The position numbers and the translations under genes were made by a program. Source: a bacterium (GTDB lineage: Archaea; Thermoproteota; Nitrososphaeria; Nitrososphaerales; Gagatemarchaeaceae). Taken from it: 64,000 nucleotides of DNA. This document shows, piece by piece, positions 2,137 to 45,175 of the stretch (position 1 is its first letter; each line of letters begins with the position of its first letter). Where the stretch lies: NCBI GenBank assembly GCA_027310575.1, contig DAIDAO010000056.1, positions 31,881 through 95,880 on the forward strand, read 5' to 3'. The notes beneath the pieces were generated by a model. It searched no databases. It saw only the letters and a program-made list of their open reading frames with translations, and was not told where the DNA came from.

Positions 2137-3504
2137 CTACCTGACTACTGGGAGCGATTCGAGGGCCTTCCCCAGGGCAGCGGAGTCTGGCTCGTAGTCG
2201 ATGAGCTTGTTCGCCAGCTTGTCTTCGTAGGCCTTGAGGTCCAGAAGGCCGTGGCCGCTGAGGTTGAAGAGGATGGTCTTGGCCTCGTTCTTCCGCTTGC
2301 ACTCCAGCGCTATGTCGACCGCCGCCTTGACTGCGTGGTTGGATTCGGGGGCTGGGACTATCCCCTCGGTCTGCGCAAGGAGGAGGCCGGCGTCCATGAT
2401 CTCGTTCTGGGTGTAGGCGACGCTGCGCATGAATCCCTTGTCGATGAGCATGCACATCGACGGGGCCTTCCCGTGGTACCTGAGGCCGCCTGCGTGGATC
2501 GGGGGGCACTGGTAGGAGTGGCCGACTGTGTGCATCTTGATGAGCGGCGTCGTCTCGCCTGTGTCTGCGAAGTCGTACCTGTACTCGCCTCTGGTCGTCG
2601 ACGGGACGGCCTTGGGCTCGGCAGCGACGAACACCGCGTCGCTCCTCCCGCGGAGCTTGTCCCGCATGAAGGGGTACGCGAGGCCGGCGTAGTTGCTCCC
2701 TCCCCCGATGCACCCGACGATGTAGTCAGGGTCTTCGCCGAACTCCTCCATCTGGAGCTTCGCCTCCTGGCCGATGACAGACTGGTGGGTGAGGACGTGG
2801 TTGAGGACGCTCCCGAGCGCGTACTTCGTGTTGTCGTGCGTGACGCAGTCTTCGATGGCCTCGCTGATGGCTATCCCGAGGCTCCCAGGGTGGTTGGGGT
2901 CCTGGCCCAGGAACTTCTTGCCTGCGCTCGTCTTCGAGCTCGGAGAAGCGTGCACTTCAGCCCCATAGACCTCCATCAGCGTCCTGCGGTAGGGCTTCTG
3001 GTCGTAGCTGGCCCTGGTCATGTAGACCGTGAGGTCTATGTCGAAGAGCGCTGTGGCGAGCGCGAGCGCGCTCCCCCACTGCCCCGCGCCCGTCTCGGTG
3101 GTGAGCCGCTCTGTGCCTTCTTTCCTGTGGTAGTACGCCTGGGCGATGGCGGTGTTCGGCTTGTGGCTTCCGGCGGGGTTGAGGTCTTCGCGCTTGAAGT
3201 AGATTTTGGCAGGGGTCCCCAGCTTCTGCTCGAGGCGCGTCGCCCTGTAGAGGGGGGTCGGCCGGCCGAGCCTGAGATACGCTTCCCTGACTTCCTCTGG
3301 GATGGGTATGAACTCCTGGGTGGAGACCTCCTGCATTACGCACTCCTTCGCGAAGAGGCGCAGCAGCGGCTCCGGGGACATGGGCTGGAGCGTCCTGGGA
3401 TCGAGGGGGGGCGGAAGAGGTTCGGGCAGGTCGTGCTGGATGTTGTAGTAGTCGGTGGGTAGTTGGTCCTGCGTAAGGACCGCCTTGAGCTGTGTCTTGC
3501 TCAT
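2137..3504 (-). CDS. trpB: TrpB2-type tryptophan synthase beta-like PLP enzyme
   Basis: 455 aa. It has the PLP-lysine motif GSHKPNTA and the long-form (about 450 aa) architecture typical of TrpB2. No trpA is present in the window. Confidence 0.85.
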   Translation of the reverse strand: MSKTQLKAVLTQDQLPTDYYNIQHDLPEPLPPPLDPRTLQPMSPEPLLRLFAKECVMQEVSTQEFIPIPEEVREAYLRLGRPTPLYRATRLEQKLGTPAKIYFKREDLNPAGSHKPNTAIAQAYYHRKEGTERLTTETGAGQWGSALALATALFDIDLTVYMTRASYDQKPYRRTLMEVYGAEVHASPSSKTSAGKKFLGQDPNHPGSLGIAISEAIEDCVTHDNTKYALGSVLNHVLTHQSVIGQEAKLQMEEFGEDPDYIVGCIGGGSNYAGLAYPFMRDKLRGRSDAVFVAAEPKAVPSTTRGEYRYDFADTGETTPLIKMHTVGHSYQCPPIHAGGLRYHGKAPSMCMLIDKGFMRSVAYTQNEIMDAGLLLAQTEGIVPAPESNHAVKAAVDIALECKRKNEAKTILFNLSGHGLLDLKAYEDKLANKLIDYEPDSAALGKALESLPVVR

Positions 3505-38480: not shown

Positions 38481-39263
38481 ATGCTGGAATCCGTGCTGAG
38501 GTACGTCGGCGCCTACAGGGTCTACGAGGGGAGGCTCAAGGCGCAGGTGGAAGGGGACGAGATCCCGGGTCACATCGGGATAATCCTCGACGGGAACAGG
38601 AGGTGGGCCCAGAACCAGGGGGTCATCAGGGGCCTGGGGCACGAAGAAGGGGCAAACAGAGCCGAAGAGCTCCTGGACTGGTGCCATGAGCTGGGTGTCA
38701 AGACCGTGACCCTCTACGTGCTCTCGACGGAGAACCTGGACAGGACCCCCGACGAGCTGAAGGAACTATTCGACCTGATACAGGCCAGGCTGAGCAAGCT
38801 CCTCAACGACGAGAGGATAGTGAGGTACAAGGTGAACGTCCGCGCGATAGGCCACCTCAGCCTCCTCCCGGACTCGGTCCTCGGCCTCCTCCAGGCGATC
38901 GAGAAGAAGACGTCGGGTTTCCACGACCACTACCTCAACATAGCCGTGGCATACGGGGGGAGGGCCGAGATCACAGACGTAGTGAAGTCGGTCGCGCGCG
39001 ACGTCAAGAGCGGGAAGCTGAGCCCTGACGCGATAACGGAAGAGACCGTTTCGCAGAGGCTCTACACCTCGTACCTTCCCAACCAGGAGCCTGACCTGAT
39101 CATAAGGACGTCCGGGGAGGAGAGGACGAGCGGGTTTCTGCTCTGGCAGGGGGCCTATTCGGAGCTCGTCTTCGTCGACGTCTTCTGGCCAGCCTTCAGG
39201 CTCATCGACCTCCTCAGGGCGATACGGACGTATCAGAAGCGAAGGCGCAGGTACGGCAGGTAA
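38481..39263 (+). CDS. uppS: cis-prenyltransferase (undecaprenyl/tritrans,polycis diphosphate synthase)
   Basis: 260 aa with HIGIILDGNRRWA and DLIIRTSGEERTSGFLLWQGAYSE motifs. Confidence 0.9.
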   Translation: MLESVLRYVGAYRVYEGRLKAQVEGDEIPGHIGIILDGNRRWAQNQGVIRGLGHEEGANRAEELLDWCHELGVKTVTLYVLSTENLDRTPDELKELFDLIQARLSKLLNDERIVRYKVNVRAIGHLSLLPDSVLGLLQAIEKKTSGFHDHYLNIAVAYGGRAEITDVVKSVARDVKSGKLSPDAITEETVSQRLYTSYLPNQEPDLIIRTSGEERTSGFLLWQGAYSELVFVDVFWPAFRLIDLLRAIRTYQKRRRRYGR

Positions 39264-39291
39264 TTCACAACAATTATATCGGAACGCACAG

Positions 39292-39762
39292 ATGGGGACT
39301 GCCACGTTGAAGGTCGCCCTCGGGACGTTCAAGGACAAGGGTACCGAACTGGTCGCTTTCCTGGAGCCGAGGGTGGGGACCAAGCCGTCGCTGTCCGGGG
39401 ACTCGATAGAGATAGAGGATGCGGGCGTGAGGGAGGGGGTGAAGCCCAGACAGGTGAAGACCTACATCAAGAGGTTCCTCTTCATGAACGGGGTAAGGAA
39501 GAAGTACAGGGTCTTCGTGTCAGGGAAGGAGCTCACGATACAGGAGATCGAGCTGGGCGAGGAAGAGGAGGAAGAGAAGGAGAAGAAGGCCCCGGCCAAG
39601 AAGCCAGAGGAAGCGGCAGCAGAAGAGGCGAAGCCCGAAGAGGCGGAAGAGGAGGCGGAGCCTGCGGTCGAAGCAGCGGCGGAGGAGCCGAAGGCGAAGC
39701 CCAAGAAGGCTGCGGCGAAGAAGCCGCGCGCCAAGAAGAAGAAGGCAGAGGAAGAATCCTAG
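39292..39762 (+). CDS. small basic protein with eL22-like core and acidic/lysine-rich tail (hypothetical)
   Basis: 156 aa. Residues about 5-85 can be aligned ungapped to eukaryotic eL22 as I recall its sequence (see finding). The tail is an E6 run followed by a K/A/E/P low-complexity region. The start is ATG 39292 or an in-frame TTG at 39307. Confidence 0.5.
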   Translation: MGTATLKVALGTFKDKGTELVAFLEPRVGTKPSLSGDSIEIEDAGVREGVKPRQVKTYIKRFLFMNGVRKKYRVFVSGKELTIQEIELGEEEEEEKEKKAPAKKPEEAAAEEAKPEEAEEEAEPAVEAAAEEPKAKPKKAAAKKPRAKKKKAEEES

Positions 39763-40151
39763 GCCGGACGGGCCTTTCTCGCCCGTTTCAGCCGTTTTTC
39801 ACGGAGCAGCGCCCTCAGGTAGTTCCTCGACTCGCGCAGCTCCTTCAGGGCCCGGGGGAGGTCCCCGAGCGCGAAGTCGTCGGCGCCCTTCTTCAGGTTC
39901 CTGGCAGCGAAGTGGAGGGCCTGCCTCTCGTCTGGGACGGCGTAGCTGCGCAGGCGGACGAAGCGCCCCGGGTCCTCTTCGTTCAGTTCGAACTTGATGA
40001 AGGCCACGCTCTTCTCTATATTCAGGTAGGCCAGCCAGATCGACCTGATCTGCTCGGCGGAGGGCTCCCCTGCGATCGTCTCCAGGGCCGACCCCAGCCT
40101 GCGGGCGGCGTCCGCAAGGTCGTCCGCGGTCTCTCCGCGCCACTCGCTCAC
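39759..40151 (-). CDS. hypothetical helical protein
   Basis: About 130 aa from GTG 40151, the first start codon downstream of the A/T-rich intergenic region. It has a basic C-terminus, KRLKRARKARPA. I recognise no family. Confidence 0.4.
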   Translation of the reverse strand: MSEWRGETADDLADAARRLGSALETIAGEPSAEQIRSIWLAYLNIEKSVAFIKFELNEEDPGRFVRLRSYAVPDERQALHFAARNLKKGADDFALGDLPRALKELRESRNYLRALLREKRLKRARKARPA

Positions 40152-40216
40152 GCCCCGCCCCGGGCGGCCTCGGACAAATAGTCTGGTTTCTGCCCGTTCA
40201 AGCTTATAACCAACAC

Positions 40217-40909
40217 ATGGGCGCCCGGCCACGCTTGCCGAAGAAGGACGAAAGGATCGGTGGTGCATGCTACGTCGGACTCGACTCGCTTCTCGAGCTG
40301 GGGAGGCTGTCCTGCGCGCTCGAGCGCGCGCCCTTCCCCCTGTTCGCGTTCAAGCACGGGAAGGCGACTCGGATCGCCGCGCAGGCGGACCTGTTCATGG
40401 GGACGCCGGTCTTCTACTACTTCGACAACGGGAAGGTGGACGAATTCCTCGCGTACAGGATCACAGGTGAAGGGGAGGAGGTGCAGCTGGTGAGCTCCGC
40501 GAGCAACGCCTCGTACCTCTACGCGCCCGTTATCAGGGTGCAGAAGATGCCCAAGGTCCTGGACTCGAAGGACGCCTTCCAGGACAAGTTCATGTCGATC
40601 GAGGTCGAGAACATCCCGAGCCTCGTGAAGGTGGGAGCCTACAAGACCCTCTTTGAGGAGCCCCCCCTCCCCCTCTTCGCCTTCAGGGACGGCGGGGGCT
40701 GGGTCGTCGGGACCTTCGCGCGGATAGACGACTATGAAGAGGCCTCGATCTTCTTCTACACCCGCGTGAACGAAGAGCCCTCAGGCTTCCTCAGGTACAG
40801 CTACGACAAGATAACCGAGACGACCTATGTGAAGAGGACCGACGAGCCCGGCTTCCACTACATCAAGGTGGTGAAGCTCACCACCCCCCACCCCCTGGTC
40901 GAGTTCTAG
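40217..40909 (+). CDS. hypothetical protein with internal domain duplication
   Basis: 230 aa. It contains two about 100-aa repeats, each opening with P(F/L)PLFAF(K/R)(H/D)G (residues about 38 and about 150). The start is ATG 40217 or TTG 40235. Confidence 0.5.
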   Translation: MGARPRLPKKDERIGGACYVGLDSLLELGRLSCALERAPFPLFAFKHGKATRIAAQADLFMGTPVFYYFDNGKVDEFLAYRITGEGEEVQLVSSASNASYLYAPVIRVQKMPKVLDSKDAFQDKFMSIEVENIPSLVKVGAYKTLFEEPPLPLFAFRDGGGWVVGTFARIDDYEEASIFFYTRVNEEPSGFLRYSYDKITETTYVKRTDEPGFHYIKVVKLTTPHPLVEF

Positions 40910-41412: not shown

Positions 41413-42474
41413 TTGGCAAAGATCAAGGTGGCCATAGCAGGCGTGGGGAACTGCGCCTCTGCGCTCATCCAGGGGCTTCACTACTACTCGAAGAAGGGGC
41501 CAGACGAAGGGCTGACCTACTGGGACGTCGGCGGGTACACCCCGAAGGACATCGAGTTCGTGGCCGCGTTCGACGTGAACTCGAAGAAGGTGGGGAAGGA
41601 CCTTTCGCAGGCCATCATGCAGCACCCCAACAACACGCTCAAGATCGCGGACGTGCCGAGCCTCGGCGTCAGGGTGAAGAAGGGGCCCGTACTCGACGGG
41701 ATAGGCAAGTACCTCAAGGACGTCGTCGCCGTCTCGGGCCAGGCAGAGGAAGACGTCGCCCGGGAGCTGAAGGACACGGGCGCCGAGATCCTGGTCAACT
41801 ACCTGCCCGTCGGCAGCACCGCTGCCTCAGGGGCGTATGCTGAGGCTGCGCTGAAGGCGGGAGCGGCTTTCGTGAACGCCATCCCAGTCTTCATCGCGTC
41901 TGAGCCCCGATGGGCCGGGCGCTTCGCCGCCGCCGGTCTCCCGGTCGCAGGGGACGACGTCATGAGCCAGGTGGGCGCGACCGTCCTGCACAAGACGCTG
42001 GTGAAGATGGCAGTCGACAGGGGGGTCAAGGTGGACGAGACCTACCAGCTCAACATAGGGGGGGACACCGACTTCCTCAACATGCTCGAGGAGAGCCGGC
42101 TGAAGGACAAGAGGGAGAGCAAGACGAGCGCGGTCAGGGCGATGTCCCCATACGAGGTGCCCACGAGGATAGGGCCGAGCGACTACGTCCCGTTCCTGGA
42201 CAACGACAAGGTCTGCTACATCTGGCTGAAGGGGCGCTACTTCGGCGGGACCGTGGTCAAGATGGACGTGAAGCTGCACGTCGTGGACGCCTACGACAGC
42301 GGAGGGGTGATGGTGGACGCCATCAGGGGGACCAAGCTGGCGCTGGACAGAGGCGTCGCAGGGCAGCTCGAGAGCCTGTCGGCATTCTGCTTCAAGCACC
42401 CGCCGATCCAGATGCCCTACCCAGCCGCGAAGGCTGCGTTCGAAGAGTTCACTTCGGGGAAGAGGGAGCGGTAG
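41413..42474 (+). CDS. myo-inositol-1-phosphate synthase (archaeal short form)
   Basis: 353 aa with a TTG start. The N-terminal NAD motif is KVAIAGVGNCASALIQG, and the length is typical of archaeal MIPS. Confidence 0.85.
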   Translation: MAKIKVAIAGVGNCASALIQGLHYYSKKGPDEGLTYWDVGGYTPKDIEFVAAFDVNSKKVGKDLSQAIMQHPNNTLKIADVPSLGVRVKKGPVLDGIGKYLKDVVAVSGQAEEDVARELKDTGAEILVNYLPVGSTAASGAYAEAALKAGAAFVNAIPVFIASEPRWAGRFAAAGLPVAGDDVMSQVGATVLHKTLVKMAVDRGVKVDETYQLNIGGDTDFLNMLEESRLKDKRESKTSAVRAMSPYEVPTRIGPSDYVPFLDNDKVCYIWLKGRYFGGTVVKMDVKLHVVDAYDSGGVMVDAIRGTKLALDRGVAGQLESLSAFCFKHPPIQMPYPAAKAAFEEFTSGKRER

Positions 42475-45175
42475 CGGCCTTCCTCCGCACGTAGTAGGCC
42501 ACTGCGAACACAGCGAGTATCACGAACGCGGTGGGGATGACATACCTGATGGTCACGTCCTCGGCGATCGCGATCCCTGACGACTTCGGGACTGTGCCGC
42601 TTATCGTCACCCCGCTGTAGGTGAAGGTCAGCTTCGCCTTCTCGAACGGGACTGTGATCCCCGAGCTCGCGACGGCGCGCGCGCTGGCGGTGAAGTTGCC
42701 GTAGGGCTGGATAGTACTGGTCAGCACCACGAGCGACCCGCGGGACACCTCAGCGTTCACGAATCCGGACAGGGCCAGCCCTGAGGGGACCGGGAGGGTG
42801 AAGTTGACGTCGGACACCTGCACGTTAGTCGGATTGGTGATCACTATGACTATCGTGAAGTTCCTCCCCTCTACTGGCGTGGCCGGAATCGTCCTGATCG
42901 ACACCCCCAGCGGCTGATAGACCTGGACCTTGGGGGGGGATCCCTGGATGGAGAAGGGGGTACCGCCGAAGTAGAACGAGGCAGTGGCAACTTTCGCGGT
43001 CTGCACCCCCGAGACCTGCAGTATGGTCACGCCGTACGACACGGTGGTGTTGCCCCCCGGAGAAATCTGGGCGGTGCCCTTGGAGAGCACCGCTGTCGGG
43101 GCCACGGTGTCGAAGGCGTCGACCGTGGACCCCACGGTCGCGTTGTAGGCAGGAAGCGGGCCTGCGTTCGTCGCAGCCACCTTCACGGTAGAGCTCATCC
43201 CGGCGAAGAGCTGCGAGGGGGTGAACTGCTTGGAGACGACGAGCCCTGCCGGGATCGCGACCGGGTTCGACCTGCCCGTGACGTTGCTCCCGGAGGTCGC
43301 TCCCTGGAAGCTGAGCGGCCCTAGTATGTAGTTCAGAGGGCTGGTCAGATTGTACTTCATGTAGGCGGTAAGCGTCGAAGACTTGTTCAGCACGGGATAG
43401 GCGATCGTCACGAGGTTCCCTGAACAGGTCAACCCGGTCCCGTTGATCGTCCCGCACCCCAGCCCTGGGGGAAGGGCCCCCTCGGCCTTGAATGAAGTGA
43501 CGTTCGCAGGGCCGGAGTTCGTCGTGGAGAACGTGAGAGTGAGGTTCGTATGCAGGTTCGCAAGGCTGGCGATCCGGGCGCTCACGGTCAGGGACGGGAA
43601 TCCCAGGCGCATGGCGGAGTGCGAGAAGATGTCGTAGACCACGTTCGTCGATGCGTTGAGGGTTGCGCCGGCTGGGTCCTGGTATGTGACAGAGTATGAC
43701 CGGGTGTTGTTGACGCCGAGCATGCCGACTGCTGACTGGGACACTGTGACCGTGGCCGTCCCCCCTGCCTGGCTTCCTGACTTCGCGGCGAGCCCTGGGA
43801 TGGACTGGCCTGCGACCACCACGGACGACGCAGGCTCGGTGCCGACGTTGGTGACCGTGATGTTGAAGTTCTGGACCGAGCCGACCGGCTTGCCGAAGCC
43901 TCCGGTCGGGACTATGGTCGCGTACACAGCCGCGTCGTCGGCGCCCAGAGACAGCCTGATGGGGTTGAGGACCGTCGTCGCGTTGAAGGTCACGCCCCCG
44001 ACCGCGTACTGGTACCTCACGACCGACGCGGGGATGATGACGGATCCTGCGGTCGTTCCGGTGTACTGCAGGCGATAGACGGGGGTGATGCTCGCCCCCG
44101 GAGCGACAGCGCTCTTGGAGACGTTATCGCTCCCGCTGAGGAACTTGAAGACCCCGGTCGCGTTCCACCAGTTGTCCGTGAACGTGAGGGAGGTGACGCT
44201 CGACGTCGAAGACGGGTTCTTGAAGTTCAGGGTGACCGCGATGTCGTCGCCCGTCCTGAGGACCCCCACGTCGACCGCCCTGTAGGCCAGGAGGGGCGCT
44301 GGCTGCTCAACGACCGTCGCATTCACCTTGGTCAGCTTGCTCCCTGCGGCAAGCCTGAGGGCGTACGACCCGGTGAACTGGGCGTAGTTCGACGTCACGT
44401 TGGCCTTGTCGGAAGACCTGACCACGCCGTCAAGGAACCTGATCTGGATGGTCGACGACGAGCTCCTGTTGGCGGCCCGCAGGGAGGAGACAGAGCTGCC
44501 GAAGTAGCTCATTATAGCCGGCTGCCCGTTGCTGAGCGCGCTCGCAGTCGCCGAGCCGGCCACGAGGCTGTGGCTGAACCCCGACGACGACTTCACCCCC
44601 TCGAAGACGATGAAGGGAGAAGCGGTCGAAAGGAACCCTGTGTTCGTCAGGGCAGCGGCGAACCCCCCTTCTGAGGAGGGTAGGAGCCGGAGGAGGGTGG
44701 CTGGCATGAGGTCGCTGAAAGAGAGCGGGCTGTAGAACGAGTAGGTCCCGGTCCCGTTCGACAGCGAAGTGAAGGAGGTGAGCAGGTATGAGCTCAGCGC
44801 GGACGCGGCCGAGGCAGCGTCAGGAAAAGAGTCGGAGCCCACGGTCAGGAAGAGCCCCTGGGACGGGAGGAACGGGGCCGGGAAGATGTTGTAGCCTCCG
44901 GGCCCGAACATCTGGAAGTCGGACGACCACCCCGAAGTCGCTGTCTTGATCGCGGTGATGTTGTACCAGGTCAGGCCGGGGGCGGACTCGAGAGCCGAGA
45001 GCTTGGCTGAGGCGTTGACCCCTCCGAAGGTGAAGTACCAGAGGGCGTCGGAACCAGCCACGAACACGTTCAGTTTCTCGGTATAAGAGCCGGCCGCGTG
45101 AGCCTCCTGCACGGGGACTGCAGAGAGGAGCATCAGGGCAACGACGAATACTGCTACCAGCTGAGAACGCTTCAA
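42449..45175 (-). CDS. large secreted, C-terminally anchored glycoprotein (S-layer protein candidate)
   Basis: 908 aa with a TTG start. It has a signal peptide (MKRSQLVAVFVVALMLLSAVPVQEAHA) and a single C-terminal TM plus basic tail. I count 23 N-x-S/T sequons (x not P). Composition is Ser/Thr/Val/Ala/Gly-rich. Confidence 0.7.
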   Translation of the reverse strand: MKRSQLVAVFVVALMLLSAVPVQEAHAAGSYTEKLNVFVAGSDALWYFTFGGVNASAKLSALESAPGLTWYNITAIKTATSGWSSDFQMFGPGGYNIFPAPFLPSQGLFLTVGSDSFPDAASAASALSSYLLTSFTSLSNGTGTYSFYSPLSFSDLMPATLLRLLPSSEGGFAAALTNTGFLSTASPFIVFEGVKSSSGFSHSLVAGSATASALSNGQPAIMSYFGSSVSSLRAANRSSSSTIQIRFLDGVVRSSDKANVTSNYAQFTGSYALRLAAGSKLTKVNATVVEQPAPLLAYRAVDVGVLRTGDDIAVTLNFKNPSSTSSVTSLTFTDNWWNATGVFKFLSGSDNVSKSAVAPGASITPVYRLQYTGTTAGSVIIPASVVRYQYAVGGVTFNATTVLNPIRLSLGADDAAVYATIVPTGGFGKPVGSVQNFNITVTNVGTEPASSVVVAGQSIPGLAAKSGSQAGGTATVTVSQSAVGMLGVNNTRSYSVTYQDPAGATLNASTNVVYDIFSHSAMRLGFPSLTVSARIASLANLHTNLTLTFSTTNSGPANVTSFKAEGALPPGLGCGTINGTGLTCSGNLVTIAYPVLNKSSTLTAYMKYNLTSPLNYILGPLSFQGATSGSNVTGRSNPVAIPAGLVVSKQFTPSQLFAGMSSTVKVAATNAGPLPAYNATVGSTVDAFDTVAPTAVLSKGTAQISPGGNTTVSYGVTILQVSGVQTAKVATASFYFGGTPFSIQGSPPKVQVYQPLGVSIRTIPATPVEGRNFTIVIVITNPTNVQVSDVNFTLPVPSGLALSGFVNAEVSRGSLVVLTSTIQPYGNFTASARAVASSGITVPFEKAKLTFTYSGVTISGTVPKSSGIAIAEDVTIRYVIPTAFVILAVFAVAYYVRRKAATAPSSPK

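Follow-up and report, generated by a model that had tools for sequence, protein, structure and literature searches.

A probable diverged eL22 homologue with a charged C-terminal tail in non-ammonia-oxidising Nitrososphaeria

Background

Ribosomal protein eL22 is described in the literature found as eukaryote-specific apart from Asgard archaea, and it has been used as a eukaryotic signature protein. Homologues in Lokiarchaeum are attributed to Zaremba-Niedzwiedzka 2017 by later papers that cite that work. A 64,000-nt stretch of DNA from the Nitrososphaerales genome G000 (the whole stretch is referred to below as the window) carries a small open reading frame at 39292..39762 on the forward strand, and its N-terminal part had been aligned with eL22 in a preliminary description made from the sequence. 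The locus raises two questions, namely whether the product belongs to the eL22 lineage and, if so, whether it serves as a protein of the large ribosomal subunit. Like the product of this gene, the Asgard proteins are archaeal, small and putative on sequence grounds rather than from ribosome data; they differ in having been presented as a signature shared with eukaryotes, whereas the present gene belongs to Nitrososphaerota, and the two are likened by description only.

Gene start and upstream signals

The open reading frame at 39292..39762 (+) was confirmed as real; it encodes 156 aa, and its residues are those quoted in the preliminary description. Comparison of 45 related loci placed the start of the gene probably at the TTG codon at 39307, 15 nt downstream of the ATG at 39292, because the codon directly before AAG-GTN was always TTG or ATG in those loci and the alignment of distant homologues begins at residue 6 of the 156-aa frame; the upstream ATG was not conserved among the 45 loci. 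The conserved gene would accordingly extend over 39307..39762 (+) and encode 151 aa.

The gene lies 28 nt downstream of a cis-prenyltransferase gene of the UppS family (38481..39263, +; PF01255, E 5.7e-73), and the 28-nt spacer contains a TATA-like box, aattatat (39272..39279, +). The position just after uppS and the A/T-rich box of its own had both been noted in the preliminary description, and the box proved to be conserved: in the 45 related loci a TTATA(A/T)- or ATATA-type element precedes the conserved start codon by about 28-35 nt. The box at 39272..39279 is taken as the putative promoter of the eL22-like gene. A purine run, GGGGA (39294..39298, +), is located 9-13 nt before the TTG start, and a GGGG or GAGGGA run at equal distance from the start is conserved across related loci; the run is possibly Shine-Dalgarno-like. 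Four of the five listed DNA sequencing runs containing the stretch were mine-drainage metagenomes from one sample, and no RNA run containing it was present in that run listing.

Sequence relationship to eL22

The two eL22 strings used for the original alignment were both found in solved eL22 chains (7o7y_BU and 8q7z_BU). A recount of window residues P52-E87 against eL22 K80-F115 returned the same 10 identities in 36 ungapped positions, and the acidic run said to follow the core is present in both proteins. From the single sequence alone the resemblance to eL22 is not significant. The Pfam model PF01776 (Ribosomal_L22e; its gathering cut-off of 23.6 bits was used as the operational threshold) gave no match to the protein at E ≤ 10 and no match in a scan of the whole window genome, Pfam and NCBIfam searches with the single protein returned only low-complexity noise from its tail, and phmmer with the first 90 residues against the PDB returned three matches only, all of them eL22, at E 0.36-1.1.

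An exhaustive homologue search yielded 54 representatives, many of them single-domain proteins of about 85 aa, and a profile, termed A1, was made from 45 of these. Against the PDB, profile A1 gave 59 matches at E ≤ 10, of which 58 were eL22 (best E 5e-6); the sole exception was HypA (E 0.014). Since eL22 chains without an acidic tail still scored E 2-3e-4, the shared glutamate run is not the driver of the match. When the 45 relatives were scanned singly, 25 of them matched PF01776 at E ≤ 1. Relatives scored 14-19 bits on this model.

Predicted fold

The globular eL22-like domain (39307..39555, +; residues 6-88 in ATG numbering, about 83 residues) was predicted to have a beta-alpha-beta-beta-alpha-beta-beta order. 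AlphaFold2 run on the A1 alignment gave a pLDDT of 87.6 for the domain, and in the full-length model the domain exceeded 90. A Foldseek search of the PDB with the domain model returned eL22 chains in all of its top 50 positions (TM 0.63-0.78). The program VIA, which is independent of Foldseek, gave its first 13 places to eL22 chains (Z 8.4-12.0, rmsd 1.7-2.4 Å over 73-87 residues), with the next fold at Z 7.1. Structure prediction and structural search, as proposed in the preliminary description, thus pointed to eL22 and to nothing else at a comparable level, and the domain as modelled has the eL22 fold.

The agreement with the eukaryotic chains 7o7y_BU, 3j79_X and 6zj3_Lj extends to the whole predicted fold (Z to 12.0, rmsd 1.8 Å over 81 residues), to an acidic run placed directly after the last strand, and to a conserved helix motif that reads K..YLKRFL...LR..YRV in the window protein and K..LTKKYL...LR..LRV in eukaryotic eL22. 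The differences are nevertheless considerable. Identity is only 12-24%; the window protein is without the approximately 15-35 N-terminal residues of eukaryotic eL22, so that the alignment starts at chain residue 34-37; it carries a polyampholyte tail of 68 aa with a conserved basic end where eukaryotic eL22 has an acidic tail of about 10 residues; and, unlike eukaryotic eL22, it falls below the threshold of PF01776 and its binding to the ribosome is a prediction.

Orthologues in Bathyarchaeia and database names

In a sample of 301 genomes of the window's phylum, profile A1 matched 52 genomes and PF01776 matched 32, with 25 of the latter exceeding the Pfam cut-off. The two models struck identical open reading frames in several Thermoproteota families, for example at G061:C3:111114-111407 with A1 and at 111120-111362 of the same contig with PF01776. 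The product of this gene, P0176 (Bathyarchaeia, 91 aa), scored 41.5 bits on PF01776, is named 'MAG: 60S ribosomal protein L22 [Candidatus Bathyarchaeia archaeon]' at NCBI, and aligned end to end with the window domain by BLASTP (29% identity, E 3e-9). Bathyarchaeia orthologues as a group scored 24-41 bits on PF01776, over the cut-off, and were matched by A1 at E 1e-12 to 1e-16; the nearest clusters in the ESM Atlas were Bathyarchaeota proteins labelled 'putative 60S ribosomal protein L22'. Because the window protein is orthologous to these PF01776-positive genes, it is placed in the eL22 lineage.

The assignment of the protein to the eL22 (Ribosomal_L22e) lineage, on a branch that has diverged beyond the reach of the Pfam model, is supported by the profile and by the model of the domain, and homology to eL22 is regarded as very highly probable. 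The eL22-like core originally proposed thus holds on the profile matches to the PDB, on the predicted fold and on the orthologues that exceed the Pfam cut-off, and the profile search and the survey of TACK genomes that had been recommended alongside it both came out in its favour.

Although they belong to the same orthologous family, the Bathyarchaeia '60S ribosomal protein L22' entries such as P0176 differ from the window protein in passing the PF01776 cut-off and in being annotated already, in their length of about 90 aa with few acidic residues after the domain in place of a long tail, and in their gene neighbourhood. Among 568 close Nitrososphaerota clusters none carried an eL22 name; these were unnamed, 'hypothetical' or bore stray automatic names ('TonB', 'sRNA-binding protein'). 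eL22 in TACK archaea is therefore already in the databases, through Bathyarchaeia, and the Nitrososphaerota branch is still labelled 'hypothetical protein'. The view that a homologue in a TACK-type genome would be noteworthy was right about the genome, as its relatives are named Nitrososphaerota or Thaumarchaeota, and agrees with the papers found, which give eukaryotes plus Asgard archaea; its novelty is reduced by the names that NCBI already gives to the Bathyarchaeia homologues.

Distribution across Thermoproteota

Every one of the 24 genomes of the window's own family (f1) contained one match each, and the window's genome itself contained one. This single copy throughout the family is a housekeeping pattern. 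Identity among homologues in the sampled genomes of the family was 80-90%, and conservation of the domain was similar to that of neighbouring housekeeping enzymes (87% vs 86% for UppS in locus L001). Within the window's order, matches were also found in 13 of 13 genomes of family f55 (a count that takes in the unpublished genome G397), in 9 of 10 genomes of f59 and in 4 of 4 genomes of f60.

No genome was matched in three other families of the order, f2 (0/23), f62 (0/23) and f57 (0/11), and f2 was also negative in the phylum sample (0/43). Closed genomes of these three families encode archaeal AmoA, and a closed genome of the window's genus is without it. The eL22-like gene was thus not found in 100 searched genomes of three families with an amoA-bearing tested representative; among the relatives it is general in those that do not oxidise ammonia, and the search of ammonia oxidisers did not recover it. 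Across the phylum the 52 positive genomes are distributed patchily, and many other Thermoproteota families were negative. Since the gene was not found in the amoA-bearing families or in many further families of Thermoproteota, archaeal ribosomes in general can do without it. The gene may have descended vertically in Thermoproteota, with a loss in the families that oxidise ammonia.

Gene neighbourhood

The order DUF373 - uppS - eL22-like gene - convergent helical ORF - 230-aa protein was conserved in Nitrososphaeria down to 40% identity, which points to a long history of vertical descent in the class. The convergent ORF (39759..40268, -; 169 aa as listed) belongs to no family, and its stop overlaps that of the eL22-like gene by 4 nt; in the distant loci L047 (6258-6644) and L056 (6261-6614) its helical homologues, 117-128 aa long, are arranged tail-to-tail with the gene. 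The 230-aa protein (window 40217-40909, +) has no Pfam family and is found downstream of the eL22-like gene throughout Nitrososphaeria; it retains 40-47% identity in distant loci and by eye appears to consist of two similar halves (...PLPLFAF...).

No translation or ribosomal gene was conserved beside the eL22-like gene in the Nitrososphaeria or Bathyarchaeia loci. Neighbours in Nitrososphaeria were DUF373, UppS, adenylosuccinate synthetase and proteins of unknown function, and those in Bathyarchaeia were PhoU_div and an ABC ATPase. As small genes for ribosomal proteins are often dispersed in archaeal genomes, the lack of a ribosomal context carries little weight. Further along the window, a 908-aa protein with DUF11/CARDB-type repeats (42449-45175, -), probably a surface protein, diverges faster than its surroundings, with 34-71% identity across loci where neighbours keep 70-90%.

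Basic helix and charged tail

The best-conserved stretch of the protein is the basic helix alpha-2, K51-M65 (KPRQVKTYIKRFLFM; 39442..39486, +), which is the predicted RNA-binding face. Residue K60 is invariant, and K56, Y58, R61 and L63 are conserved in at least 90% of 45 relatives. Window residues K51-F64 align with human eL22 K80-K93, and the human protein needs residues 80-93 to bind 28S rRNA with high affinity and to be incorporated into the ribosome (PMC2668802). As the helix aligns with these rRNA-binding residues, it may bind 23S rRNA in the same manner.

Yeast eL22 lies between eL31, eL19 and eL38 at the outer face of 25S domain III. By analogy, the domain would dock on 23S rRNA at the outer face of domain III near eL31, eL38 and eL19, with the conserved basic helix K51-M65 as the contact. 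Two of these eukaryotic neighbours of eL22 have a counterpart or a candidate counterpart in the window genome, which encodes eL31 in the usual L39e-L31e-aIF6 cluster (L39e and aIF6 were named by eye) and, outside the window, an eL38-like ORF (L090 1423-1647 = G000:C6, +; 74 aa, probably 65 aa from MPREL...). The latter scored 22.2 bits on PF01781, for which the cut-off is 27. Sulfolobus, which formed part of the control set, was likewise missed by PF01781, and Pfam thus seems to under-detect eL38 in archaea.

The domain is followed by a Glu/Lys/Ala/Pro tail of 68 aa (39556..39759, +; residues 89-156 in ATG numbering) that is predicted to be disordered and is composed of 34% E, 24% K, 26% A and 10% P with a net charge of -6. 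In the numbering of the 151-aa form, a short helix is predicted at 86-94; block-mean pLDDT was 59-54 over the first 20 tail residues and 39-48 from residue 99 onward. Median tail length in 116 close homologues was 63 aa. The layout of the tail is fixed and consists of an acidic run (GEEEEEEKEKK), a variable Glu/Ala/Pro spacer, a basic motif with the consensus KPKKAAAKKPRAKKKK and a short acidic end. The motif, which in the window protein reads PKAKPKKAAAKKPRAKKKK (39688..39744, +) and lies near the C-terminus, is kept while the preceding spacer varies, and four tail lysines are conserved in at least 90% of sequences. More distant relatives of about 85-105 aa, including all of the Bathyarchaeia ones, are without the tail, so the tail is a lineage-specific addition.

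A comparable architecture is present in Drosophila eL22 (4v6w_CU, 299 aa), in which an eL22 core that matches the model at Z 11.6 is fused to a long low-complexity extension. The fly extension is N-terminal (core 188-299), whereas the tail of the window protein is C-terminal, and the two are of independent origin. The fly extension has been described as H1-like.

Ribosomal role and alternative explanations

The explanation preferred here, and considered moderately probable as a whole, is that the protein is a diverged archaeal eL22, inherited vertically, which would act as a constitutive large-subunit protein in the non-ammonia-oxidising Nitrososphaeria, docking on 23S rRNA through its basic helix with the tail projecting from the subunit; that the basic end of the tail would contact nearby rRNA is a guess. 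True residence on the ribosome, taken as a separate point, is given a modestly favourable estimate. The eL22 fold is no proof of it, because yeast eL22 is non-essential and eukaryotic eL22 binds non-ribosomal RNAs. A true eL22-fold RNA binder that is not a stable ribosome component, such as an assembly factor, an RNA chaperone or a regulator acting on structured RNA, with the tail tuning its binding, is a rather unlikely alternative. It would suit the binding of EBER-1 as well as 28S rRNA by eukaryotic eL22 (PMC2668802), the action of yeast eL22 mainly in 60S assembly, the patchy distribution in Thermoproteota and the lack of a ribosomal gene neighbourhood, but the last of these counts for little given how scattered such genes are in archaea, the single match at 80-90% identity in every sampled genome of the family is the pattern of a structural housekeeping protein, and the conserved positions match the ones on which human eL22 depends for incorporation into the ribosome.

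Two further readings depart more widely from a ribosomal eL22. The domain could have been re-used as a nucleic-acid binder in a nucleoid or chromatin protein, with the Ala/Lys/Pro-rich end of the tail acting like that of linker histone H1; KPKKAAAKKPRAKKKK does resemble H1-type tails in composition, and the long extra region of the Drosophila chain offers a parallel. This is improbable, as most relatives are without the tail, which places the ancestral function in the eL22 domain, and as the tail is net acidic and no chromatin genes are nearby. Still less credible, and at the far end of the range considered, is a common small alpha/beta fold belonging to the aIF2-beta/eIF5 or SUI1/eIF1 family. 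Nine of the 45 relatives weakly matched PF01873 (eIF-5_eIF-2B; best 19.8 bits, cut-off 27), NCBIfam aIF2-beta models matched weakly (23.7 bits, cut-off 129), and VIA placed SUI1-type and eIF5 domains at Z 5.3-5.5 (2e9h at Z 5.3 and rmsd 5.3 Å; 4uer_F, 5oa3_0 and 1d1r at Z 5.4-5.5). Common small alpha/beta arrangements give values of this order, which fall far short of the Z of 12 obtained for eL22; the sequence scores are likewise far below their cut-offs and far below the eL22 scores, PF01873 gave no match to the window protein itself, no PDB chain of aIF2-beta or SUI1 was matched by profile A1 at E ≤ 10, and the orthologues pass the Pfam model of eL22. The aIF2-beta/eIF5 and SUI1 identities are therefore disfavoured on profile and Z scores.

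Implications for the eL22 family

The protein is a diverged addition to a known family. Because the Nitrososphaerota orthologue is continuous with Pfam-positive Bathyarchaeia genes, the eL22 family is wider than Asgard archaea and eukaryotes, which makes eL22 a poor Asgard marker, and the family appears older as well. The broader proposition, that it is a genuine large-subunit protein in non-ammonia-oxidising Nitrososphaeria and Bathyarchaeia and that eL22 is at least as old as the common ancestor of Thermoproteota, Asgard archaea and eukaryotes and has been lost repeatedly, is held to be evenly balanced between true and false. If it is true, eL22 is not an Asgard-eukaryote innovation, its losses include one at the base of the ammonia oxidisers, and the tail in the window's family is a lineage-specific extension gained on the ribosome surface; the ammonia oxidisers would then be a further case in which a lineage has lost an archaeal ribosomal protein. 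Annotation could be given to hundreds of entries now labelled 'hypothetical protein' (the 568 clusters). The gain is limited in that the Bathyarchaeia genes are already labelled in databases and the function proposed here is inferred.

Comparison of 23S rRNA genes

No 23S gene was found in the window's MAG, and 23S genes of related genomes were compared. Six gene-carrying families of the order possess an additional hairpin with a GNRA cap, located just 3' of the conserved GGGAAACUGGUUAAUAUUCCAG hairpin at a place assigned to 23S domain III by position only, and the three ammonia-oxidiser families have neither the hairpin nor the gene. Two families are exceptions: f54 has the hairpin but no gene was found in it, and f52 lacks the hairpin but has a diverged gene. 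In the wider phylum, some lineages that lack the gene (f36, f18 and a genome of f3) carry the hairpin too. The hairpin was therefore rejected as support for the eL22-like gene, since the link seen inside the order breaks down at the level of the phylum. In the loci compared (L097-L126, L157-L168) it is present in most Thermoproteota sampled and missing in f52, f9 and the three ammonia-oxidiser families, and it is lengthened in the window's family.

The 23S genes of the window's family measured 3345 and 3886 nt, whereas those of ammonia oxidisers are about 2960-3000 nt long. This difference is due to insertions of 594, 645 and 407 nt at different sites, the first in L095 (G309, same genus; 2787-3380) and the other two in L096 (G423, same family; 2760-3404 and 2219-2625). 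Open frames of about 183-185 aa occur in two of the three, and a LAGLIDADG-like motif, LVGILFGDGS, is present in the frame from G423. The insertions are probably rRNA introns with homing endonucleases; their interpretation as expansion segments is disfavoured by the differing sites and the open frames. The 3' part of both long 23S genes (L095 and L096) aligns poorly and may hold more insertions.
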